IMG/VR virus record: IMGVR_UViG_3300017978_000092
Location: 1 to 30,881 of that record
DNA length: 30,881 nucleotides
Reading direction: 5' to 3' (one strand)
DNA from: a virus
Lineage: Duplodnaviria; Caudoviricetes
A program made the translations under genes and the position numbers. The notes beneath the pieces are model-generated. The model was given only the letters and a program-made list of their open reading frames with translations. It did not search any database and was not told the DNA's origin. Positions 2,640 through 27,334 of this stretch are shown piece by piece (positions within the stretch are counted from its first letter, which is position 1; every line of letters begins with the position of its first letter).

Positions 2640-4795
2640 TGATCACAGAAATAATTTTAGAAAATAGCCGGCTTGATATTTACGAGGATATTGGGCTGGA
2701 ATTAAATTTGGCGATTGATGACATCAAAGACTTTAGCTCTAGAAATACGACGTATTCAAAAACGATCACAGTTCCAGGCAATGCTAATAATAATAAAATT
2801 TTTGGGCATATTTATAGCCTTACAAATTCTAATAATTACGGCGTTAATACAGATAATCCAAGCGTTGGTTATAATTTCGATCCGACTAAACAAACGAATG
2901 CGAAGATTTTTGTAAATAAAATCCAGGTATTTAAGGGCGTTCTTCGCTTGCTTGAGATCAAGATCAACAAGGGAACGATCGAGTACGAGTGCGCGGTGTT
3001 TGGAGAGCTTGGAGGCTTTGCTTCTGCGATTGCTAATAAGACGCTTGAGGATGAGGAGTTTTCAAACTACTTTTCGCAGTACGATCAAACCTGGACAGAA
3101 GTAAACGTTGAAAACTCCTGGGATGCTTCAGGAACTGGTGTGGTTTTCCCATTGATTGATTATGGTAACTGCAAGCAAGACGGGAATAACTACCACTTAA
3201 ACGCGTTTAGACCGGCTTTCTTTGTCCATGAAATAATGGATAAGATAATCGACTACTCTGGCTACACTTATTCAAGTGACTTCTTCAATACGTCATTCTT
3301 TAGATCGCTGATTATCCCGAATAATTTCGCAAACCTAGAGCAGGTCATCGCTAATTTATTAAACGCTCAGGCGGCTAATATCACGATCACTGGATCGGAT
3401 GAATTGCTGACTTTTAACTCGACAAATTTATATCAATTCACGGTCGCGTCAAGTAATACGTTCACGTTTACTGGCACTACTGGAACGCTTGGAAAGTTTA
3501 CTTTCCAGGGATATGGAACTGTTATAACTCAGCGCCAGGTAAATATCAAGCTATACCAGAATACGACAGTGATCGGATCCTGGACGCTTGCAGATAATGA
3601 CGATGAGCAAACCGAGTTCTACATTAACCAGGAGATCGAAGCTTCGCTGACAAATGGGGACACGTTCTATGTGGAAGTGACTACGAATCCAGGAAGTAAT
3701 CCGAACTACGAATTTATTTCAGAGAACTTAATGCTCGATTTTAATTCGGACAATTTGGTTCCGGTCGCTGCTACTTATGGCGCGTCACTTTCGATGCCGA
3801 ACTTATTACCTAAAGGAATCCTTCAGAAAGATCTATTTATCTCGATCTGCCGGATGTTTAACCTTTACGTGTATGAGGACAAGTCAAAGGATAAGCACAT
3901 CATGATTGAGCCCTTCATAGACTTCTATCAGATCGGTGGTGGCTTTATTAAGATTGATGACTTTGGAGACTTGCTTCTTCACGGAGAGCCAGGCGATACG
4001 ACTGGGCTAGTATTACTAGAGGATCCAGTATCAAACGCAATCGACTGGTCCGATAAGGTGGACTATTCTCAGCCGATTAGTATCAAGCCGATGAGCGAAC
4101 TTAATGCGCGCTTCTACGACTTCCAATATACAGAAGACGATGACTTCTTCAATGAGCGATACAATAAAAAATACAGCGAAAGCTACGGAGATAGAAAAGA
4201 GGATACTGGATTCGAGTTCACAAAGGACCGAACAAATATCGATATAATCTTTAGCCCTTCTGTATTAGTCAAAAGGACTGGAGATGACAAACTTTGCGCT
4301 TCTATTTTTGACCAGTCGGATAATGTGGAAGAAAGACGCGATACTAATATCCGAATCATGCAATTTCAGAAAATATCTGGAGTTTCATCTTGGACTATTA
4401 GACAAGTTAGCGAACAAGGATCGGGAATCTTAGGCTCTGCGATTACTTATTACGGCTATGCTGGACATTTAGATCATCCAACGGCACCGACTAAGGATAT
4501 TAATTTTGGGGTTCCTAAAGAATTGCTATTCAGTCTATCTGTGCAATATCCTTCAGCCAACTTATTCACTTCATTCTGGGGCGATTATTTGGCCGAGATC
4601 ATTGCTAAGGATAGTAAGCTCCTATCTTGCTATTTATACCTAGATCTGCAAGACATCTATTCGCTAGATTTTGCAAAGCTGATCCTGATTGATGGCGCGC
4701 TTTGGAGATTAAACAAAGTAAATGACTACAATCCAAGCGTTCCAAAAACTACCCAGGTAGAACTATTGAGAGTAATTGAATTAACATACGCATAA
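2639..4795 (+). CDS. Tail tip/hub structural protein
   Basis: 718 aa; N-terminal DI.D.SSR..TYSKTI.VPG..NN.IF and YP/FPLIDYG-type motifs typical of Bacteroidota siphophage tail-tip proteins; precedes tape measure. Confidence 0.6.
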   Translation: MITEIILENSRLDIYEDIGLELNLAIDDIKDFSSRNTTYSKTITVPGNANNNKIFGHIYSLTNSNNYGVNTDNPSVGYNFDPTKQTNAKIFVNKIQVFKGVLRLLEIKINKGTIEYECAVFGELGGFASAIANKTLEDEEFSNYFSQYDQTWTEVNVENSWDASGTGVVFPLIDYGNCKQDGNNYHLNAFRPAFFVHEIMDKIIDYSGYTYSSDFFNTSFFRSLIIPNNFANLEQVIANLLNAQAANITITGSDELLTFNSTNLYQFTVASSNTFTFTGTTGTLGKFTFQGYGTVITQRQVNIKLYQNTTVIGSWTLADNDDEQTEFYINQEIEASLTNGDTFYVEVTTNPGSNPNYEFISENLMLDFNSDNLVPVAATYGASLSMPNLLPKGILQKDLFISICRMFNLYVYEDKSKDKHIMIEPFIDFYQIGGGFIKIDDFGDLLLHGEPGDTTGLVLLEDPVSNAIDWSDKVDYSQPISIKPMSELNARFYDFQYTEDDDFFNERYNKKYSESYGDRKEDTGFEFTKDRTNIDIIFSPSVLVKRTGDDKLCASIFDQSDNVEERRDTNIRIMQFQKISGVSSWTIRQVSEQGSGILGSAITYYGYAGHLDHPTAPTKDINFGVPKELLFSLSVQYPSANLFTSFWGDYLAEIIAKDSKLLSCYLYLDLQDIYSLDFAKLILIDGALWRLNKVNDYNPSVPKTTQVELLRVIELTYA

Positions 4796-6669
4796 TGGCA
4801 GTAAACGAAACAGTAGGAATTAATCTAGTAGCCGACACGAAGAGTCTGAGAGGACAACTTCGTGAGGCTATGATGGAATTAGTAAAACTCCAAAATTCAG
4901 CTGGAGCCTCCGCTCAGGAGATTGCAAACGCTGCTAAAAGAGCTGCCGAATTAAAGGATAGAATAGGAGACGCTAAGGCTACGATCGAGGCGTTCGATCC
5001 AGATGCTAAATTTAAAGCATTTGGTCAGTCAATCCAGGGTGTAGCTGGTGCGTTCGCTGCAACTCAGGGAGCTTTGGCTCTTGTAGGGGTAGAATCTGCT
5101 GAGGTAGAGAAGCAACTCTTAAAAGTTCAGGGTGCCCTGGCGTTATCTGAAGGACTAAATACGGTCCTAGCATCGATCGATGGCTTTAAAAACTTAGGGC
5201 TAGTAATCAAAACAAACGTATTGAGCGCCTTTGCTAGCCTTAGAGCGACAGCCGTAGCTACGTTTACAACTATTAGAGGGGCATTAATTGCCACTGGAGT
5301 AGGTGCTTTTGCGATAGCTTTAGGATTAATCGTCTCAAATTTTGATGCAATTAAGGAGGCGGTCCTTAAAGCGATCCCTGGTCTGGCTAATGTAGGTAAG
5401 ATTTTCACTGGATTAGTGGAGAAAGTGACCGATTTTATAGGCATTACAAACCAGGCAGACAGAGCTTTAGAGAAATTCACTAAGACTTCAGAGCGTAGAA
5501 AGGAAACTTTAGAGTCTGATCTTAAAGTTTTAGAAGCAACTGGAGCCAGCGAGAAGGTACTTTCTGAGAAGCGCAAGGAGATTGTCAATACTGACTTAAA
5601 TGTATTACGTCAAAAACTAAAGACAAACGGGGAGTTAAGCAAAGAGGAAATGAAGAAATTCCGCGAGCTTAAAACTGACTTAGTCGTGATTGACGCTAAA
5701 TACAATAAGTCTGTAACGGATGAAAATAAAAAGCGTAATGAAGAAGTAGCTAAGCAAAATAAAGAGGCAGCAGACAAAGAGCTAGCCGCTGCTAAAAAAC
5801 GCCTGGAAGATCTTCGCAAAGGAGCGGAAGATACACGCGCAGAATATGAAAAGAATCAGGCAAGGATCAACAAGGAAGATGAAGACATCGCAAATAGAAA
5901 CGCGGAGAAATTCCTGACTGATCAAGAAAAAGAAATTGAATTAGAGCAGGCAAAATATGACAAGCTTTATGAAGATCGTCTAAAATTTGGGGGAGATCTT
6001 GAAGGCGTAGAAGAGGCACGACAAGAAGCGCTTCTAAAGATCAATGAAAAATACGAACAGCAAGCGCTTGAAAATTTAAGCACGACTTCTGAGGATATCG
6101 TACAAACTAATAGAGCTACTCAGCAGATGCAAACTGAGGACGCGAAGAAAAACGCTGAGGCTAGAAAGAAAATCGCTCAAGAAGAAGCAAAGGCTAAGAT
6201 CGCAGCAGCTCAAGCAACTGCTGACACACTAGCGAACTTATCGAATTTATTAGGGCAAGAGACGGCAGCAGGAAAGGCGGCAGCGGTAGCAAGCGCGACG
6301 ATCTCAGCGATATTATCAGCTCAGAAAGCTTACGAGTCTACGATTGGGATTCCTTTCGTAGGACCAGTGCTTGCTCCGATCAATGCTGGACTTGCTTTAG
6401 CTTCTGGATATAAATCGATTCAGAACATCTTAGCTGTCCAGGTTCCTGGTCAATCTGGTGGAGGATCAGCGCCTAGCTTAGGATCAGCACCAAGCGCAGG
6501 AGCCGGCGCTCCTATTGCGCCAAGATCAGCGGAGCCTATCCCGACTTCATTGGATCAGAGATCACTAAATAGTATCTCAAACGTAACGACACGCGCGTAT
6601 GTGGTAGAGAGTGACATCACTGGATCACAGAAAAGAATTGAGCGTATCGAAAAAGCTTCAAGATTTTAA
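4795..6669 (+). CDS. Tape measure protein
   Basis: 624 aa, Ala-rich and helical; ALIATGVGAFAIALG hydrophobic segment, long coiled coil, C-terminal RAYVVESDIT..Q motif. Confidence 0.8.
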   Translation: MAVNETVGINLVADTKSLRGQLREAMMELVKLQNSAGASAQEIANAAKRAAELKDRIGDAKATIEAFDPDAKFKAFGQSIQGVAGAFAATQGALALVGVESAEVEKQLLKVQGALALSEGLNTVLASIDGFKNLGLVIKTNVLSAFASLRATAVATFTTIRGALIATGVGAFAIALGLIVSNFDAIKEAVLKAIPGLANVGKIFTGLVEKVTDFIGITNQADRALEKFTKTSERRKETLESDLKVLEATGASEKVLSEKRKEIVNTDLNVLRQKLKTNGELSKEEMKKFRELKTDLVVIDAKYNKSVTDENKKRNEEVAKQNKEAADKELAAAKKRLEDLRKGAEDTRAEYEKNQARINKEDEDIANRNAEKFLTDQEKEIELEQAKYDKLYEDRLKFGGDLEGVEEARQEALLKINEKYEQQALENLSTTSEDIVQTNRATQQMQTEDAKKNAEARKKIAQEEAKAKIAAAQATADTLANLSNLLGQETAAGKAAAVASATISAILSAQKAYESTIGIPFVGPVLAPINAGLALASGYKSIQNILAVQVPGQSGGGSAPSLGSAPSAGAGAPIAPRSAEPIPTSLDQRSLNSISNVTTRAYVVESDITGSQKRIERIEKASRF

Positions 6670-6683
6670 CTAAAAAATAAAGA

Positions 6684-7280
6684 ATGAATTTACCTATTTA
6701 TTTACTAGAAATTAACGAGGATCTAATGGATGGATCAGAAGTAGATTTTGTCGCTTTGGTAGATAAGCCAGCGATCGAGAGAAACTTCCTTCGCTTCAAA
6801 GAGGATCGCATGAATTTTGAGATCCAAGACGAAGAGCGTCGAATCATCTCAGGTCCTATGATGTTAGCAGATACACCGATCTATCGTAATGATAACGGCC
6901 AAGAGTATTTCGTTTCATTCCCAAAGGATACGATTTATAAGATCGTCAAAAAAATGTTCCAGAAGGGATACACTTCAAACGTCAATTTGATGCATGATCC
7001 TAATCAGGTAGTCGATGGCGTCACGATGTTTGAGTGTTGGATCACAGATGAGTCGAGAGGTATCAAACCAATGAAAGGATTTGAAGACGCTCCAGACGGA
7101 TCAGCTTTTGCCTCTTATTCGATCGATAATGATGAAGTGTGGGGAGACATTAAAGCAGGTAAGTTTAAAGGATTATCTGTTGAAGGTATGTTCAACTACA
7201 AGAAACATCCAGGAGATATGACTAAAGAAGAAAAGCTCTGGTCTGACATTGCTAAGATTTTGGATGAGTGCAAAGTTTAA
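6684..7280 (+). CDS. Prohead protease (XkdF-like/S78 serine protease)
   Basis: ALVDKPAIE, GPMMLAD.PIYR, N.MH and W..IK.G.FKGLSVEG motifs; upstream of scaffold and capsid. Confidence 0.8.
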   Translation: MNLPIYLLEINEDLMDGSEVDFVALVDKPAIERNFLRFKEDRMNFEIQDEERRIISGPMMLADTPIYRNDNGQEYFVSFPKDTIYKIVKKMFQKGYTSNVNLMHDPNQVVDGVTMFECWITDESRGIKPMKGFEDAPDGSAFASYSIDNDEVWGDIKAGKFKGLSVEGMFNYKKHPGDMTKEEKLWSDIAKILDECKV

Positions 7281-7282
7281 AG

Positions 7283-7316
7283 TATAAACTTTTTTTTTAT
7301 CTGTATTTATAAACGA
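7283..7316 (+). promoter_or_regulatory. Putative late promoter, copy 2 (TATAAA-N15-TATTTATAAACGA)
   Basis: Intergenic, upstream of scaffold/capsid; same spacing as copy 3. Confidence 0.55.
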
Positions 7317-7335
7317 GTAATAAATTAAACTAAAC

Positions 7336-7929
7336 ATGACAGTAAAAGAAGGAATCGAAAAAATCCGCTTGATGCTAGCTTCAGAAAACGAAGAAGTACA
7401 AGTGGAGACTAGCGAGGAATCTGCACCGGTCACTGAATTGTCTTTCGAAACTTATGATCTTAAAGACGGATCTAAGATTGATTTAAGCGGTTTGGAGATT
7501 GGAGCTGAAGCTTCGATAGTAGATGAAAGCGGAAATACTTCTCCTGCACCAGAAGGAGAGTATGAGCTAGTAGACGGTACTATGATCACGATCGTAGGTG
7601 GTAAGGTAGAAGGCATTGAGACTCCTCAAGCTGAAGCTGAGCCAATTGAAATGCCAGAGGAAGAGATTCCAATGGAGTCGGACAAGTTCACAGAGATCGA
7701 TGGCACAATCGAAAACTTAAAGGCAGAGAACGAAGCTTTAAAAGCTAAGATCGCATCTATCGAGGGTAAATTCTCTCAAGCGATCAACGATCTTTCTGAC
7801 GTAGTTTTAGGTTTAGCTTCAACTCCTAGCGCTGGTCCTATCCAGGCACCAAAAAATTCTTTCTCTCAAGTAGAGAAAAGAGAAGATAAAATCGAGAGAT
7901 TTTTAAACAAAGTAAAAAATTTAAAATAA
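7336..7929 (+). CDS. Capsid scaffolding protein
   Basis: Very acidic, with APEGEYELVDG motif and a coiled coil; lies between protease and capsid. Confidence 0.65.
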   Translation: MTVKEGIEKIRLMLASENEEVQVETSEESAPVTELSFETYDLKDGSKIDLSGLEIGAEASIVDESGNTSPAPEGEYELVDGTMITIVGGKVEGIETPQAEAEPIEMPEEEIPMESDKFTEIDGTIENLKAENEALKAKIASIEGKFSQAINDLSDVVLGLASTPSAGPIQAPKNSFSQVEKREDKIERFLNKVKNLK

Positions 7930-7948
7930 CAATTTAACAAACAAAAAG

Positions 7949-8911
7949 ATGGCATTTGTAGTATCTTCATTGGCTGACTATACAGAACAAAACGCGACTC
8001 AATTAGTAGCGTCTTCAGTATTAGGAGCAAAAACAATCTCTTTGATCAAGGATCAAGGTAACGTAATGTTAGGCGTAAAATCTGCTGAGACAGTAAACAT
8101 TATGGACACAGACGCGTTCTTCCAAGATGGTTCTTCTTGCGGTTTCAACGCTTCTGGCACAACTACTTTCACACAGCGTACATTAACTGTTGGAAAGATC
8201 AAAGTAAACGAGGCACTTTGCCCGAAAGATTTAGAAGCTAAGTATTTACAGAAGGCATTGCCAGCTGGATCTTCTTACGATTCTATCGTATTCGCTGCTG
8301 AATACTCACAACGTAAGGCTGACAAGATCGCTTCTCAATTAGAGATCGCGGTATGGCAAGGCGATACAGCTTCAGCAAACGGAAACTTGAACAAGTTCGA
8401 CGGTTTCGCTAAGTTAATTGCTGCTGCTTCTGCTTCAGTAATCCACGCTAACACGACTACTTACTACGGTACTCCTTTAGCTGCTTCTGCTGGTATCACT
8501 ACTTCAAACGTGATCGCTGTAATTGATGCAGTTTACAAGGCATTACCTGCTGAGATCGTAGCTAAGGACGATGCGACTATCTTCGTAGGAATGGATGTAT
8601 TCCGTACTTACACAATCGCATTAAAGAACGCGAACTTATTCGCTTACAACTTTGATGGCAAGGCAGATTCAGAATTGATGTTGCCAGGAACTACTATTAA
8701 GGTGGTAGCTGTTCAAGGTTTGAATGGTCTTTCTAAGATCTATGGTGGTCGCGTTTCAAACATGTTCTACGGTACTGACTTATTAGATGAGCAAGAGCGT
8801 TTCGAATTGTTCTTCGCTAAAGAAGCAGATCAAGTTCGCTTCGTAGCTGAGTTCAAGGCTGGCGTTCAGATCGCTTTCCCTGCTGAGATGGTAGATTTCA
8901 TCTTAGCTTAA
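7949..8911 (+). CDS. Major capsid protein
   Basis: 320 aa, high-expression codon bias; LCPKDLE, WQGD and FDGF.KL motifs; follows protease and scaffold. Confidence 0.85.
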   Translation: MAFVVSSLADYTEQNATQLVASSVLGAKTISLIKDQGNVMLGVKSAETVNIMDTDAFFQDGSSCGFNASGTTTFTQRTLTVGKIKVNEALCPKDLEAKYLQKALPAGSSYDSIVFAAEYSQRKADKIASQLEIAVWQGDTASANGNLNKFDGFAKLIAAASASVIHANTTTYYGTPLAASAGITTSNVIAVIDAVYKALPAEIVAKDDATIFVGMDVFRTYTIALKNANLFAYNFDGKADSELMLPGTTIKVVAVQGLNGLSKIYGGRVSNMFYGTDLLDEQERFELFFAKEADQVRFVAEFKAGVQIAFPAEMVDFILA

Positions 8912-8928
8912 TTCTTACCAATAAGTTC

Positions 8929-8962
8929 GGGGAGATCCATTGGATTGGACTCCCCTAATTTT
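8929..8962 (+). terminator. Hairpin/partial terminator after the capsid gene
   Basis: GGGGAG-A-TCCA-loop-TGGA-CTCCCC followed by TAATTTT. Confidence 0.55.
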
Positions 8963-8982
8963 AACCTTTTAAATTTAAAATA

Positions 8983-9495
8983 ATGGCTTGCGCATTAACT
9001 CAAGGATATACCTTAGATTGCAAAGATTCATTAGGCGGAATCACGGAAGTGTATTTCATTGAAAAGGGTAACGTATCTAGCACGACTGAAGCAAGCGGTG
9101 TAATTACTGCAATCACTAAGGGAAGCGGTAAGGTTTTTAGAAAATACGAATTAGTTCCTGGAACTTCTTCTTTGACTGAGAACATCAACGCGAACGTGCA
9201 AAACGGGACTGTATTCTACGCTCAGGAATTGTCAATCATTCTTAACAAATTACAAGCGAATACAAGAAATGAAATTCTTTTATTAGCTCAGAATACTTTA
9301 GTAGCTGTCGTAGGCGATAACAACGGCAAATACTGGTATTTAGGCAAGGTCCACGGACTTAATATGTCAGGTGGCAATGGTGCAACCGGTACGGCTCAAG
9401 GAGATCGTTCTGGATACACTTTGACATTCTCTGCTTCAGAAGGTGCTTTGGCTCCAGAAGTAGCTAGCGGTGTAATCTCTGGATTGACTGCTTAG
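8983..9495 (+). CDS. Major tail tube protein
   Basis: MAC.LT.G..L.CKD..GGI..VYF N-terminus, NGT.FY.Q.L and GD.SGYTLTF motifs; strong codon bias. Confidence 0.7.
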   Translation: MACALTQGYTLDCKDSLGGITEVYFIEKGNVSSTTEASGVITAITKGSGKVFRKYELVPGTSSLTENINANVQNGTVFYAQELSIILNKLQANTRNEILLLAQNTLVAVVGDNNGKYWYLGKVHGLNMSGGNGATGTAQGDRSGYTLTFSASEGALAPEVASGVISGLTA

Positions 9496-9548
9496 TAAGA
9501 TAGTCGTTTGGTTAGACGGGGAGGGGGCGAGAGCCTCCTCTTTTTTTT
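9496..9548 (+). ncRNA. Candidate 3'-UTR antisense sRNA (seed TCGTTTGGTTAGA, 9504-9516)
   Basis: Seed is the reverse complement of the TCTAACCAAACGA-type motif found before ATGs at 14956, 15574, 19805, 25435 and 27288. Confidence 0.45.
9521..9548 (+). terminator. Rho-independent terminator
   Basis: GAGGGGGC-GAGA-GCCTCCTC followed by 8 T. Confidence 0.9.
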
Positions 9549-9552
9549 GTTT

Positions 9553-9586
9553 TATAAAATAACTTTGCTTTGCTATTTATTATCGA
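9553..9586 (+). promoter_or_regulatory. Putative late promoter, copy 3 (TATAAA-N15-TATTTATTATCGA)
   Basis: Immediately after the terminator and abutting ATG 9586. Confidence 0.55.
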
Positions 9587-9972
9587 TGATTCATTTCACT
9601 AAAGGACAAACGACGAAAATAGTAGTGACGCTAAAGGAGAAGCAAACCCTTTCGGCGCCTAATTACTTATTCTATTTCACGTCCAGAGCGACTGGCGATA
9701 CAAAGGCTTTTGTGCTTTTAAATAACGCGGATGTATCGAATTTTAAAGATCGATTCAACGCTTTTAATGTAGCGACAAATAGCTATTTCGCTAACTATGA
9801 CAGCGGAGAATATACTTATGCTATATATGAGCAGACTTCAAGCTCAAATTTAGATCCTACTTTAGCTACTGGATTGCTGGAAGTGGGGCAAATGTCGCTT
9901 AAAAACTCGACAGAATTTGAGTTCACGACATACAACCAAACGAATAATACCTTTATAGTGCGCGATATATGA
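9586..9972 (+). CDS. Small beta-rich virion protein (head-closure or Ig-like)
   Basis: Start revised to ATG 9586 because the longer call runs through the terminator; G.Y.Y.IYEQ.S..NLDP...G..E.G motif. Confidence 0.6.
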   Translation: MIHFTKGQTTKIVVTLKEKQTLSAPNYLFYFTSRATGDTKAFVLLNNADVSNFKDRFNAFNVATNSYFANYDSGEYTYAIYEQTSSSNLDPTLATGLLEVGQMSLKNSTEFEFTTYNQTNNTFIVRDI

Positions 9973-14920: not shown

Positions 14921-14930
14921 CTATTTATAG
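14921..14930 (+). promoter_or_regulatory. Partial late-promoter motif CTATTTATAG
   Basis: Core TATTTATA in the intergenic region before the lysis block. Confidence 0.4.
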
Positions 14931-14955
14931 ATTAATAAATTAAACAAACCAAACG

Positions 14956-15225
14956 ATGAAATTAAATTTCAATTTTGACCTTTTAGGTTTAGATGAGCAA
15001 CCGATCGAGGGGGCGAATGCAAGTAAATTATTAGCGAACGCTTTAGCCCATGGATCCAAAGGCGATGCCTTAAAGTTCTGGGATTGGGCGGTAAGCTTAA
15101 ACAAGGGAGAAGTTCTTGACTTGGATTCATCCGATCAAGAAACGATCAAAAATTTTATTAAGGATTCTGAAGGTTTCACGATCCTAGCGAAAGCGCAATT
15201 ATTACAAGTTTTGAAAAAAGACTAA
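14956..15225 (+). CDS. Hypothetical protein (possible fibre-associated chaperone)
   Basis: 89-aa ORF with a good A-rich leader, directly after the fibre gene. Confidence 0.6.
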   Translation: MKLNFNFDLLGLDEQPIEGANASKLLANALAHGSKGDALKFWDWAVSLNKGEVLDLDSSDQETIKNFIKDSEGFTILAKAQLLQVLKKD

Positions 15226-15546: not shown

Positions 15547-15573
15547 TTAATTATACCTTTATATTCTAACCAA

Positions 15574-15993
15574 ATGGTCACTTCACAGCAAGCGCTTAAA
15601 AAGTACGGCCCAGCATCGGATTCAAATCCTAACCTAGTTCTTTGGGATGTGCCTACAAACCTAGAAATAGGACTGATCCCTAAAAGAATCTATTGCAATA
15701 AAGATTTAATTGGTCCGCTATCCCTGGCATTTAAAAAATTGATTGACACTGGATCAGTAAAAGAATTGAAGACTTGGGACGGGTGCTTCAATATCAGAAA
15801 GAAGCGCGGTCTTGCCTCAATGTCATTACACTCCTGGGCTATCGCAATAGATGTAAACGCCTTCGAGAATGGATTAGGACAGACGCCTAAATTATCTAAT
15901 AAATTTGTAGAATGTTTTACAAGCTCAGGCTTTGACTGGGGTGGAACTTGGACGCGAAAGGATGGCATGCACTTTCAACTTAGCAAAATATGA
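15574..15993 (+). CDS. Endolysin, M15-family Zn peptidase (L-Ala-D-Glu type)
   Basis: GCFNIR, S.HSWAIAIDVN, WGG.W and DGMHFQL motifs. Confidence 0.9.
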   Translation: MVTSQQALKKYGPASDSNPNLVLWDVPTNLEIGLIPKRIYCNKDLIGPLSLAFKKLIDTGSVKELKTWDGCFNIRKKRGLASMSLHSWAIAIDVNAFENGLGQTPKLSNKFVECFTSSGFDWGGTWTRKDGMHFQLSKI

Positions 15994-16436
15994 AAAAATT
16001 ACTTATTCTTTTGGCTTCTGTGGCATTCTTTTCTTGCAAGCAGACAAAGACTCTGACCGAGTATAAAGAAACGCTTAGAATCGATACTATAAAAAGCGAG
16101 AAGATAGTAGAAAAATTTAGAGCGGTCCACGATACGCTCACGATCTCGAATCCTTGCGACTCTTCTGGGATCCTTTCTTCTTTTTATTCCAGGTTAATTC
16201 TTCCTAATGGATCAGTGACGATCAAGTCCGACAAGGGCCAGATCAGAGCTACGATCGACATCGATTCGATGCGCCAGGAGATCGAGAATAATTACCGAAA
16301 CTCTCAAGTGAAATGGATCGAATACAGAGACAAGGAAGTGATCAAGTATCGGGTTCCTACCTGGGTGGTCATGCTACTATTCGCGGAGGCTGTCATGTTG
16401 ATCGCTTATATTTATCTTAAATTCGGCTTAAAATAG
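15990..16436 (+). CDS. Unimolecular-spanin-like lipoprotein
   Basis: Lipoprotein signal MKKLLILLASVAFFS-C plus C-terminal TM (WVVMLLFAEAVMLIAYIYL); follows endolysin. Confidence 0.7.
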   Translation: MKKLLILLASVAFFSCKQTKTLTEYKETLRIDTIKSEKIVEKFRAVHDTLTISNPCDSSGILSSFYSRLILPNGSVTIKSDKGQIRATIDIDSMRQEIENNYRNSQVKWIEYRDKEVIKYRVPTWVVMLLFAEAVMLIAYIYLKFGLK

Positions 16437-16630: not shown

Positions 16631-17603
16631 GGCAGAAGCAATCAAGAAACACTTCTACTCTACCAATATGACACGCGCAGATTTTGAGCGTGAAAACTGG
16701 GAGAATTACGGATACAAAGACATGTCTACCTTTCATCGCCAGATGACTAGATACGGGATATCTGTCCAAGATCGATCTGATTACTTTAAAAAGACTAGAC
16801 CAATCGCGAAGATCGAATCATTCAACCTGGATGAGATTGATAGCTTTGGAATCGAGCCAGGGATCGGGAAAGAATACACCAGTGCGCGCCTTCCTGAGCA
16901 CTTAAAAAAGATCGGGATCCTATCTGACATTCACGTTCCTTTTCACTCCTTAGAAGCGCTTACCTGCGCGATAAAATATCTGAAAGAGCAAGAGATCGAC
17001 TGCCTTTATTTGAACGGCGATACGTTCGACTTCTATTCTATATCCAGGCACGAGAAGGAAAAAGATCTCAGAGACTTTCCGCGCGAGATCGAGATGGCTA
17101 GAAACTTTCTTCAGAAGCTTCGCGACATATTCCCTTTGATTCCGATCTACTTCAAGGCAGGAAATCACGAGAATCGCTTCCAGCGCTATCTGTTTAGCCA
17201 GGCTGAAGAGTTCGCTGGCCTCCACGAATTGCAGTTCGATAAGTTCTTCCGTATGGATCACTTGAAAATCGAATGGGTGGAAGACTGGCAAGGTATGGAA
17301 ATGGGCGATCTATTAGTCTGTCACGGTCACGAGCTCATGGCTGGAGGGATGAATCCTTCGCAAACGACGTTCAATAAAACTTTCTGCAATACTTTGATAG
17401 GTCACGTCCACAGAACGACGAGCACGATCAAGAAAAACGGCTTTAAAAAGTTCATTCATTCTTATTCGACTGGGTGCCTGACTCACTTATCGCCGAAATA
17501 CTATCCTTTTGCGCAGCACAATCACGGATTTGCACTGGTAGAAATAGAAGAAGGCAAGGCAAAAGTTCAGAATCTTATGATAAAAGACGGAAAAATTGTG
17601 TAG
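16611..17603 (+). CDS. Calcineurin-like metallophosphoesterase
   Basis: SDIH, GD.FD, GNHE, HGH and GHVH metal-binding motifs. Confidence 0.9.
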   Translation: MNKENDKAEAIKKHFYSTNMTRADFERENWENYGYKDMSTFHRQMTRYGISVQDRSDYFKKTRPIAKIESFNLDEIDSFGIEPGIGKEYTSARLPEHLKKIGILSDIHVPFHSLEALTCAIKYLKEQEIDCLYLNGDTFDFYSISRHEKEKDLRDFPREIEMARNFLQKLRDIFPLIPIYFKAGNHENRFQRYLFSQAEEFAGLHELQFDKFFRMDHLKIEWVEDWQGMEMGDLLVCHGHELMAGGMNPSQTTFNKTFCNTLIGHVHRTTSTIKKNGFKKFIHSYSTGCLTHLSPKYYPFAQHNHGFALVEIEEGKAKVQNLMIKDGKIV

Positions 17604-17608
17604 CTTTG
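17601..17608 (+). promoter_or_regulatory. Bacteroidota -7 promoter element TAGCTTTG
   Basis: Matches TAnnTTTG; would drive an ~75-nt ORF-less RNA ending at the terminator. Confidence 0.45.
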
Positions 17609-17611
17609 TAG

Positions 17612-17690
17612 AAATTAATTGTTTTTCATAGTGTTTTTATAGGTTTAGATGACATTAGAAAGCCCTGGGATCTTATCTCCGGGCTTTTTT
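17612..17690 (+). ncRNA. Candidate antisense sRNA against early-gene leaders
   Basis: Bounded by a promoter motif and a terminator; 17634-17651 is complementary to 17789-17806 and 18096-18113. Confidence 0.55.
17659..17690 (+). terminator. Rho-independent terminator ending the late/lysis block
   Basis: AAAGCCC-TGGGA..TCTCC-GGGCTTT plus T tract. Confidence 0.85.
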
Positions 17691-17749
17691 GTGCTTGAAA
17701 ATAATTTAAAAATAAATTTAAAATAATTTTTTAGTATCAAAAAAGGTAG

Positions 17750-19751: not shown

Positions 19752-19759
19752 TATATTTG
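19752..19759 (+). promoter_or_regulatory. Bacteroidota -7 promoter TATATTTG
   Basis: Exact TAnnTTTG, intergenic, followed by a hairpin leader. Confidence 0.6.
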
Positions 19760-19804
19760 TAAACCGGGCCGGTCATGTAGGCTGGCCCACATCTAACCAA
19801 TAAA

Positions 19805-24625: not shown

Positions 24626-24842
24626 TAAAAATCTGCCGGACAATTATAAGCTGTGCATCGCCTGGATCGAGTCAGAATTGACACGAGAGACACGATCGAT
24701 CACTCTGCCTGGTGTTATCATCAACGACTTAAATCATTCGCTTAGAATCAATCTTTTGCGAATCTTAAATAATCACGGATCCGAGCGGAGGGCTGCCTTC
24801 CTTCGGACCAAAAGAATAAAGGACTATCTAAATAAAAATTGA
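24573..24842 (+). CDS. Hypothetical protein (true start uncertain, possibly near 24615)
   Basis: ORF with genome-typical codon usage in its 3' part. Confidence 0.55.
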   Translation: MILLLDTITKKPTVLDTNKNLPDNYKLCIAWIESELTRETRSITLPGVIINDLNHSLRINLLRILNNHGSERRAAFLRTKRIKDYLNKN

Positions 24843-25053: not shown

Positions 25054-25394
25054 AAAAGCTAAAAGAAAAAGAGACGATCATTATCTACGCTGGTCTGATC
25101 AATTCACTGATCGATCACATCGAGGCAGACTTCCGGCCGTCGATCTTTAATCGCCAGGCGCTTAAGATGAAATCAAACAGCGTCCTTGATGAATTACTCA
25201 AGATCGAGCAGGAGATCTACAAAGGCGATCCGAGCGGAGAAGTCACTGATCAGTACCTGGATGCCGGGAAGCTTATGATCCTATTCTTTCGCCTAGGCTT
25301 GGAGATGACTGAAATGTCAGAGACTAAGAGCGAAGGTCTTAATACTCAGCTGAATATATTATTAAAAAATTACGGCATAAATTTGGAGTTTTAA
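25050..25394 (+). CDS. Hypothetical protein
   Basis: 114-aa helical ORF, ATGA-coupled. Confidence 0.65.
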   Translation: MKKLKEKETIIIYAGLINSLIDHIEADFRPSIFNRQALKMKSNSVLDELLKIEQEIYKGDPSGEVTDQYLDAGKLMILFFRLGLEMTEMSETKSEGLNTQLNILLKNYGINLEF

Positions 25395-25434
25395 AAAAGA
25401 TTTTTTAAACTTTGTAAAACCAAACGAAATACCA

Positions 25435-25698
25435 ATGAATAGTAACGCTGAGCAAGTGGTCAAACCTGATCACTATCAAGGAAAGGGAGGACTCCAGGCG
25501 ATTGACGTGATCGATGCTTTTGGGCTTGGGTTCTCCCTAGGTAACGTCATCAAGTACGTTCTTAGAGCAGGCAAGAAACAAGATCGTCTTCAGGACCTTG
25601 AGAAAGCGATGGAATACTTAAAGTTTGAAATCGAAAACACGAAGAAGATCGTTAAGGAAGTCGAAGCTTACATCGCTAGTTTACCAGAGGACTTATAG
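25435..25698 (+). CDS. DUF3310-family protein (T7 gp1.7-like nucleotide-kinase domain)
   Basis: P.HY......AIDVI....F.LGNVIKY..RAGKK....DL.KA..YL. Confidence 0.85.
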   Translation: MNSNAEQVVKPDHYQGKGGLQAIDVIDAFGLGFSLGNVIKYVLRAGKKQDRLQDLEKAMEYLKFEIENTKKIVKEVEAYIASLPEDL

Positions 25699-26201: not shown

Positions 26202-26385
26202 GAAGCCAGATGAGACAGCCCGTGAGCTGTTCAATAATTGCCTTTACTTTACTGGCTCTAAACTAATGGCCCGAGAGTGCGCTCTGTTTATGTGCCAGAA
26301 GTTTATCGACATGTCGAAGCGGATGGACGATAAATGCTATTACCTGGAAGTAAAAGAAGCGCTCTATAAAATAGAAATAAAATAG
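26194..26385 (+). CDS. Small helical protein, MTPKEKA-like paralog 5
   Basis: KPDETARELF...ARECALF...YYLEVKEALYKI. Confidence 0.6.
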   Translation: MNKKPDETARELFNNCLYFTGSKLMARECALFMCQKFIDMSKRMDDKCYYLEVKEALYKIEIK

Positions 26386-26515
26386 TCAGGTGGCGGAATG
26401 GTAGACGCTAAGTGGTAAAGCTAACCACAGACAAAGCTGTGACGGACTCAGAAGTACAATGAGTTGAAGTAGAGAAGATTACGCATGGTTATAGGTTCGA
26501 ATCCTATCCTGACTA
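26384..26515 (+). ncRNA. tRNA-like RNA with an expanded central region (132 nt)
   Basis: Acceptor stem AGTCAGG/CCTGACT, D arm GCG-GAATGGTAGA-CGC, T arm ATAGG-TTCGAAT-CCTAT; ~80-nt non-canonical middle; no encoded CCA. Confidence 0.75.
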
Positions 26516-27050: not shown

Positions 27051-27334
27051 CAGAAAAAGACATAAAATTCATCCAAGACAATATCATCAACTTTGAATCG
27101 GTAGCGCTTGGATTTACTCGAAACCTGGATCACGCGGTCCTCAATGAGTATCACGAAATCTACAAGCGATCACTGGATCCAAGTTATGTTTTAAATGCCT
27201 GGTGTGGAGGCTGTGTCTTCGACATGCTCAAGCGATTAAAGCATCACTACGAGAATGTGATCTCAGCTCAACAAACTAACCAAACCAATGACAAAATCAA
27301 AGCTAAGAATCCTGGCGGTAGGAAGTCAAAATAG
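27047..27334 (+). CDS. Hypothetical protein with CxxC (WCGGCV)
   Basis: 95-aa ORF. Confidence 0.6.
   Translation: MTEKDIKFIQDNIINFESVALGFTRNLDHAVLNEYHEIYKRSLDPSYVLNAWCGGCVFDMLKRLKHHYENVISAQQTNQTNDKIKAKNPGGRKSK

Follow-up and report, generated by a model that had tools for sequence, protein, structure and literature searches.

The element described here resembles several known base-pairing regulators. The FopS RNAs of Bacteroides (RF04319) comprise a single-stranded anti-start seed and a terminator, one of the 14 members being derived from a 3′ UTR, and a copy has been noted in a phage (PMC11697453). FopS base-pairs with start regions to repress translation, its binding to a first gene also lowered the downstream genes, FopS-14 is an exception to the presence of an own sigma-ABfr promoter, and the Bacteroidota are said to be devoid of classical sRNA chaperones (PMC11697453). 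GlnZ (PMC9731577) and CisR (PMC13250501) are 3′ ends of mRNAs that carry the operon terminator and a conserved seed acting in trans; both are host-encoded and Hfq-dependent, with repression shown experimentally, GlnZ must be released from its mRNA to act, and CisR acts on a phage mRNA. Among phage-encoded RNAs, PreS, VpdS, StxS, and sar are base-pairing regulators, and PAK_P4as15 of the Pseudomonas phage PAK_P4, a cis-encoded RNA of ca. 550 nt antisense to the endolysin gene, has been proposed to delay lysis by repressing translation (PMC12197685). In the literature covered, mostly outside subscription journals and confined to main texts, no report was found of a 3′ UTR of a phage structural gene pairing or co-evolving with leaders of the same phage.

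The stretch of DNA analysed (the window) is a whole virus record of 30,881 bases with terminal repeats. All its gene calls are on the + strand, and the PHROGs labels include portal, terminase, tape measure, protease, tail spike, endolysin, DnaB, and glycosyltransferase. The only cultured relatives found are the Nonlabens phages P12024S and L, with 31% identity of the tail protein (gp03 in P12024S). The host is likely a Bacteroidota cell, as indicated by these relatives, by homologs of the 89-aa target gene described below, which occur in Bacteroidota assemblies in six of seven cases, and by the A-rich leaders and TANNTTTG boxes of the window genome. The sequencing runs best holding the stretch, after omission of those with a small share of it, are from freshwater. 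An intergenic gap at ca. 26384–26515 carries tRNA-like 5′ and 3′ ends ca. 130 nt apart, called as a tRNA by neither ARAGORN nor Rfam.

The element lies at the end of the probable major tail gene and comprises the following features:

8983–9495, + strand: probable tail tube (major tail) gene of 170 aa, whose mRNA bears the element
9496–9548, + strand: 3′ UTR element, i.e., seed region plus intrinsic terminator, between the tail stop and the end of the U-run
9504–9516, + strand: seed UCGUUUGGUUAGA (TCGTTTGGTTAGA), whose complement is enriched in leaders
9506–9513, + strand: core GUUUGGUU of the seed, conserved among tail-gene loci
9505–9518, + strand: predicted weak hairpin whose loop contains (U)GGUU
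9519–9548, + strand: terminator hairpin and U-run, with a stem sequence varying by lineage

The product of 8983–9495 is likely the tail tube protein, a reading based on gene order (it is encoded downstream of a capsid-like gene) and on an ESM Atlas lead, Phage_TTP_16 at 0.85, with the ten best named matches in one family or clan, rather than on fold; Pfam and PDB sequence searches gave no match. Between the capsid and tail genes (8929–8955) there is a GC-rich hairpin without a U-run, similar to one found after the capsid gene in several relatives, which could set the capsid-to-tail ratio. The tail stop codon occupies 9493–9495, the GC-rich terminator hairpin 9519–9542, and the U-run ends at 9548, so that the seed is situated between the stop and a strong terminator exactly as given in the preliminary description of this DNA; its distance downstream of the tail stop is 5–12 nt. 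The seed hairpin, adjacent to the intrinsic terminator, is predicted to be weak (3–8 bp) with an open loop, and among 15 distinct arm pairs its fourth position is paired C-G in nine and A-U in three and is open in the other three (p = 0.016 by arm shuffling). A listed ORF starting at TTG 9508 (9508–9972) crosses both seed and terminator; its true start is likely ATG 9586, which gives 128 aa as in the relatives.

The element appears to be the end of the capsid/tail message, since no conserved promoter of its own is found: there is no TANNTTTG box within 4501–9560, and in the last 240 nt of the tail gene neither a late motif nor an internal promoter is conserved among the relatives compared. A separately promoted sRNA was rejected on the latter ground. 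Contigs from four RNA runs have a depth of 24–72 over the capsid and tail genes and of 4–10 from 9604 onward, and three of the four stop at 9446–9517 (two with loose ends) and one spans the terminator; as these are assembled contigs whose ends need not be transcript ends and whose depth is no basis for ranking genes, the drop is a weak hint of an abundant capsid/tail mRNA. A scan of the window against Rfam at the gathering score gave no match, and an E-value scan of 9400–9650 gave six, judged to be chance, with FopS absent at E up to 10. In exact 15-mer scans, the viral matches followed by a terminator, among those listed, resemble this tail-gene end, and the bacterial ones are scattered.

With 3′UTR-derived sRNAs the element shares its location in an mRNA 3′ UTR, a shared terminator, and a conserved seed complementary to other mRNAs. 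In this it is similar to GlnZ and CisR; it differs from them in being phage-encoded, in having the phage's own genes as predicted targets, and in being read from sequence alone. Seed and targets lie on the same strand, 5–18 kb apart, and not on opposite strands as in a cis-antisense pair. Thus, unlike PAK_P4as15, the element has a seed of 10–14 nt encoded elsewhere than its targets, which are several, the conserved one not being the endolysin gene; and none of PreS, VpdS, StxS, or sar is presented, in the part of the source available, as the 3′ UTR of an mRNA for virion structural proteins or as co-evolving with a partner leader (PMC12197685). The preliminary description did not recognise the layout, a U/G-rich seed followed directly by an intrinsic terminator, as described, but FopS sRNAs of Bacteroides already possess it, and they also share complementarity to the start regions of operon-first genes (a prediction in our case) in a phylum without Shine-Dalgarno sequences (PMC11697453). 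Nevertheless, the element at 9.5 kb, judged by its sequence, is not a FopS member: it has no Rfam match, lacks the GUUUUUCAU seed and a conserved promoter of its own (sigma-ABfr, TANNTTTG), belongs to a structural mRNA, and has a seed that varies with the leaders of its own genome, while that of FopS is fixed. The 5′ seed consensus of the FopS model is GUGUUUUUCAU, compared with UCGUUUGGUUAGA at 9.5 kb and UUGUUUUUCAU in another element of the window, at 17.6 kb:

17601–17693, + strand: separate FopS-like element with a TANNTTTG box, the GUUUUUCAU anti-start seed, and a terminator, recognised by alignment to RF04319

This second element aligns to all 71 positions of RF04319 and is much closer to FopS in sequence than the one at 9.5 kb, so that it can be called FopS-like, yet its score of 17.6 bits is far below the cut-off of 56, which is passed by none of the 41 phage records (best score in relatives, 25.5 bits). 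Its own TANNTTTG box at 17601 overlaps the phosphoesterase stop codon. Eight relatives have it at this position, and seven more have similar TTTCATAG elements in front of other terminators. The two seeds had been proposed to form one antisense network. The enrichment and co-variation given below support this for the 9.5-kb seed, and thus for half of the proposal; the 17.6-kb seed is only weakly enriched in leaders (6 vs 2.1, p = 0.04 in the window; p = 0.13–1.0 in the eight relatives that carry it). Matches of the FopS model over the tail 3′ UTRs of G002, G012, and G018 (12.6–15.1 bits) were disregarded as evidence, G018 being seedless.

The complement of the 9.5-kb seed is matched at seven places on the + strand, all of them at the positions reported beforehand:

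14947–14956, + strand: main target site AACCAAACGA, which includes the A of a start codon and is conserved in relatives
15565–15578, + strand: site across the start of the endolysin gene (Peptidase_M15_4), match at 15565–15574; 10 Watson-Crick pairs, 14 with G-U; lineage-specific
19792–19800, + strand: site preceding a 63-aa gene, in its leader, with a TANNTTTG box upstream at 19752; seen as a match and in relatives
25418–25427, + strand: site in the DUF3310 leader, with a TANNTTTG box at 25378 and a sigma-like gene next; seen as a match and in relatives
27276–27285, + strand: site in the glycosyltransferase leader; seen as a match and in relatives
9934–9943, + strand: match in the coding region of the gene starting at 9586, upstream of the portal start; probably chance
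155–164, + strand: match in a coding region, with no role assigned

The extension of the endolysin match to 14 bp with G-U pairs across the AUG likewise holds. Matches of at least 9 nt occur in five of the 50 leaders (−30 to +5), while dinucleotide shuffles give a mean of 0.07 leaders and never reach five in 2000 trials, column shuffles behaving alike; three of the 50 leader starts are misplaced by one base, none of them belonging to a matched leader. Enrichment at leaders, which the preliminary description had named as a check, is therefore evident. Five of the seven + strand sites fall in leaders, which constitute 5.7% of the genome, and the sole − strand site of the complement is the seed itself. 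Among 30,868 genomic 13-mers, only seven reach five leaders; two of these are the seed and five are near-pure A/T strings. When the whole element is cofolded with the 43 called leaders in an accessibility-aware manner, the five named ones take the top five places, with energies of −11.9 to −13.9 kcal/mol.

The match at 9934, presented earlier as a site before the portal gene, falls within the 9586 coding sequence, at −35 to −26 relative to the portal ATG; G001 and G036, two phages whose tail protein is identical, have lost it through a synonymous change. The portal leader was therefore rejected as a target, and the match is likely due to chance. A further string, GACTATCT at 24822–24829, complements the element's 5′ portion and recurs 20–22 nt before a start in G000, G002, G011, and G036; it may be kept as a second sub-seed, or because the upstream gene needs this coding sequence.

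Among the 80 closest tail-gene loci, a set with much redundancy, the core GTTTGGTT is present within 35 nt of the tail stop in 70, with a terminator stem that differs between lineages, which bears out the conservation of the seed, another check suggested at the outset. Among the remaining ten loci, related U/G-rich strings occur in seven and no such string in two, and one locus is an apparent artefact. The sequence of L037 past the tail stop enters an adapter-like string, presumably a sequencing adapter, which is also a loose end in the RNA-run contigs, and this tail end is likely an assembly artefact. Of 38 genomes, 36 have a terminator downstream of the tail gene. In distant relatives the same slot is occupied by other anti-start strings, e.g., GTTTTCAT, CTTTCGTGG, and CATAAGGTTTAG, and no anti-leader seed was seen in five of the 38 genomes (G018, G030, G031, G037, and G042). 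The tail 3′ UTRs of four distant loci (L453, L457, L459, and L461) contain a sense AACCAAA-like motif, in L459 and L461 able to pair with the far side of the hairpin.

For the study of co-variation, genes were called with our own script in 38 records and orthologs were grouped by BLAST. Where the 3′ flank of the seed changes, the leaders of orthologous genes change correspondingly. Thus, the DUF3310 leaders CTAACCAAACGA (G036), TCGCCAACCAAA (G007), and TCAACCAAA (G011) and the glycosyltransferase leaders CTAACCAAAC (G000), GTCAACCAA (G006), and TAATCAACCAA (G019) each complement the seed of their own phage, the lineage-specific match reaching 12 nt in the DUF3310 leader of G007 and 11 nt in the glycosyltransferase leader of G019. 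Beyond the shared AACCAA, 35 bases are matched over 31 lineage-by-gene sites, the three composition-matched nulls yielding 7.9, 6.4, and 17.5 (p ≤ 0.0013), and permutation of the seven seeds gives p = 0.005. The extension amounts to 1.13 bases per site in leaders vs 0.30 in coding-region control sites; the control set, at least one site of which is a missed leader, also leans weakly to the own seed (permutation p = 0.017; 0.005 before removal of duplicates). In clades with another small gene after the fibre, the seed/leader pairs are GCTTTCGTG/CACGAAAGC, TATAGGT/ACCTATA, and TTTGTTGTTTG/CAAACAACAAA. Over the seven seed types, own seed-leader pairs have 75 matched bases vs 49.6 after permutation (p = 0.0004), the partners for three of the types (G013, G020, and G024) having been picked once the matches were visible. 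Co-variation of seed and leader, also named beforehand as a check, is thus positive in the flank test, in the seed permutation, and in the second clade described below.

The most conserved partner is the gene following the tail fibre:

14956–15225, + strand: 89-aa gene, first in the lysis cassette according to gene order; protein model with pLDDT 95
14921–14927, + strand: late-promoter-like motif CTATTTA before the main target, found by motif search; its function is presumed

Its leader matches the seed over at least 7 nt in all 14 core-seed genomes in which the gene is called, and over at least 8 nt in 11 of them, compared with 14 of 598 for other genes at at least 8 nt. By duplex energy the post-fibre gene is among the top five in 18 of 21 genomes, a noisy statistic, coding windows being about as good as leaders in many relatives; in G005 there is no 8-nt match within −30 to +10. 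Two leaders put forward as sites from the window alone, those of DUF3310 and the glycosyltransferase, are matched in eight of 15 relatives and in all eight with trusted starts (nine short, probably mis-started glycosyltransferase calls were dropped), respectively, and that of the 63-aa gene in five of the eight genomes having it; the gene after DUF3310 matches Sigma70_r2 in three of 15 homologs. The endolysin, taken in the preliminary description for a target, fared otherwise: the M15 endolysin site is present in two of two genomes, near-identical to each other, and a different lysin, lysozyme-type in our reading, has it in one of four (four short calls dropped), so that this site is lineage-specific and the 89-aa gene is the conserved target. 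Behind the latter, most genomes carry endolysin genes and genes that we read as holin-like and lipoprotein genes. The 89-aa protein has a confident model whose closest folds are uncharacterised phage proteins; Pfam, PHROG, and PDB sequence searches gave no match, and fold comparison gave no clear one (best Z 4.2). The CTATTTA-like motif has 13 matches in the genome, four of which (28, 7303, 9573, and 14921) lie 13–35 nt before starts in the structural region, and it may track the sigma-like gene at 25698. In the same place the motif reads (C/G)TATTTA in the window, CGTTTA in the second clade (e.g., L673), and CGTTA in P12024S.

The second clade came from a locus found via the 89-aa gene, in which the tail protein is 39% identical and the longest antisense match in 12.9 kb is one of 12 nt in the tail 3′ UTR. 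From 80 loci fetched, 17 distinct seed-leader pairs were obtained, of which 14 match over 12–14 nt and 12 are the sole match of such length, in both directions, within 11–20 kb. One seed is common to most pairs, and two variants are altered on both sides (ATCACAAAAAACAA; AAACAAACAAAA). In the three failures, one UTR is lost and two pairs match over 7–8 nt only. The tail gene of L690 abuts the next gene without a UTR or terminator, and the post-fibre leader still has the site. In the seedless G018 the site is absent. In larger phages (49–117 kb), represented by 11 records with the 89-aa gene and no tail homolog, AACCAA was found in none of ten readable leaders, which indicates that the site is not needed for translation of the 89-aa gene. 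In P12024S (L760), the tail 3′ UTR (2695–2724) is complementary over 13 nt to the gp24 leader (ATPase/GNAT; 16300–16312), which is the best of 45 leaders, the next best having 8, the sequence being of low complexity.

Taken on its own, the claim that the feature is real and has been selected to stay complementary to a specific leader is, from the comparisons above, very probably correct. That the tail mRNA 3′ UTR pairs in trans with the start regions of the phage's own genes, where it is predicted to block ribosome loading, is probable, at about two chances in three. Of the matched leaders, 41 of 47 have an intergenic gap in front of them, compared with 233 of 582 others, and several follow promoter-like boxes; they are thus probably the 5′ ends of separate mRNAs, which favours pairing in trans. 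The capsid/tail mRNA, ending at the 9548 terminator, would be abundant late in infection. Its looped GGUU would nucleate on the unstructured AACC of a target leader, loop-first pairing being a common route for antisense RNAs, and the weak hairpin would then open to give 10–14 bp. The duplex would cover about −20 to +5, and translation would fall; in Flavobacterium, initiation is promoted by adenines at −3, −6, and −12/−13 (PMC6847099), and as these would be covered, repression is the simplest outcome. Either the intact mRNA or a fragment of ca. 55 nt freed from it may be the active species, and we speculate that terminating ribosomes may cover the seed, masking it until fragment release or slower translation.

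The conserved circuit would link the level of the structural mRNA to the 89-aa gene heading the lysis cassette, and lineages would gain or lose extra targets, namely the glycosyltransferase, the DUF3310/sigma-like operon, the 63-aa gene, and here the endolysin. As a result, the post-fibre protein would be capped, the lysis genes would be slowed by polarity during virion assembly, and the middle operons would receive negative feedback. The delay of lysis by polarity, two steps of reasoning deep, is plausible by analogy with FopS, which lowers downstream genes; a role of the element in the timing of lysis as such is conceivable, with the balance somewhat against it.

All the co-variation results are symmetric, and they would fit equally the opposite direction of action, in which it is the target leaders that alter how stable the tail mRNA is or how it is processed, or that soak up the seed away from host mRNAs. 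The position of the seed near the stop codon, where a duplex could recruit or block a nuclease, agrees with this, but the sites cluster on the start codon and at −20 to −1 of operon-first genes, as befits ribosome blocking, and the tail mRNA is probably, on slender grounds, in excess. We hold such reversed action to be unlikely, at roughly one chance in seven, relative to repression of the leaders by the tail mRNA.

A little less likely again, roughly one chance in nine, is a generic anti-start or protein-binding seed of the FopS/RbpB kind, directed at common Bacteroidota leaders including those of the host, with matches in the phage arising from A/C-rich composition. Consistent with it, AACCAA is found in 38 of 829 leaders (4.6%) of phages without the core seed, vs 57 of 705 (8.1%) with it, GTTTTCAT-type seeds occupy the same slot in distant relatives, FopS is bound by RbpB (PMC11697453), and many relatives have no significant enrichment. 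Genome-wide 8-nt leader enrichment has p at most 0.015 in only six of 29 genomes, so the five-target network is unusually full in the window phage and its closest kin. The composition-matched nulls are nevertheless exceeded, and a generic seed leaves the lineage-specific matches of 11–14 nt and the unique reciprocal best matches unexplained. Host targets in addition to the phage leaders are possible.

Very improbable is an origin at the DNA level, as inverted repeats produced by template switching or gene conversion or as sites of a DNA-binding protein. G-U-compatible mismatches beside the matches number 36 vs 31 mirror transitions (p = 0.28), which did not separate RNA from DNA, so RNA pairing is judged from strand and position, and the matches are mostly perfect Watson-Crick. 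On the other hand, all target copies are on the sense strand with a single antisense copy in the 3′ UTR, the sites track start codons, the segment between them has one orientation in the genomes examined, and the sequence changes wholesale between clades with complementarity kept. The weakest candidate, pairing in cis in rare read-through transcripts from the tail gene to the post-fibre gene 5–8 kb downstream, can draw on the main target being downstream on the same strand and on the one RNA-run contig crossing the terminator, but it is hardly credible given the strong hairpin, the promoter-like motif ca. 30 nt upstream of the target, and two other targets more than 12 kb away round the genome.

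The post-transcriptional balance between structural proteins and lysis in lytic phages is poorly known, least of all in the Bacteroidota, whose ribosomes ignore Shine-Dalgarno sequences. Here the seed and its conserved target are both named and compensatory variants occur in nature, so that a direct test is possible, and the Nonlabens phage P12024S, a cultured distant relative with a similar arrangement and a different partner, could provide a host-phage system. The co-variation of seed and leader can detect regulatory pairs in uncultured phages where Rfam is blind owing to the turnover of the seed sequence. FopS-like RNAs, for their part, appear to extend past the gut Bacteroides into freshwater phages. 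For the phages themselves, we tentatively suggest, as a possibility somewhat short of even chances, that in a whole family of small Bacteroidota tailed phages the 3′ end of the major structural mRNA would serve as a re-addressable antisense guide, rewritten in each lineage together with the leader of the first gene of the lysis cassette, so that the output of virion proteins would time lysis and shut the middle operons with neither a regulatory protein nor a Shine-Dalgarno target.
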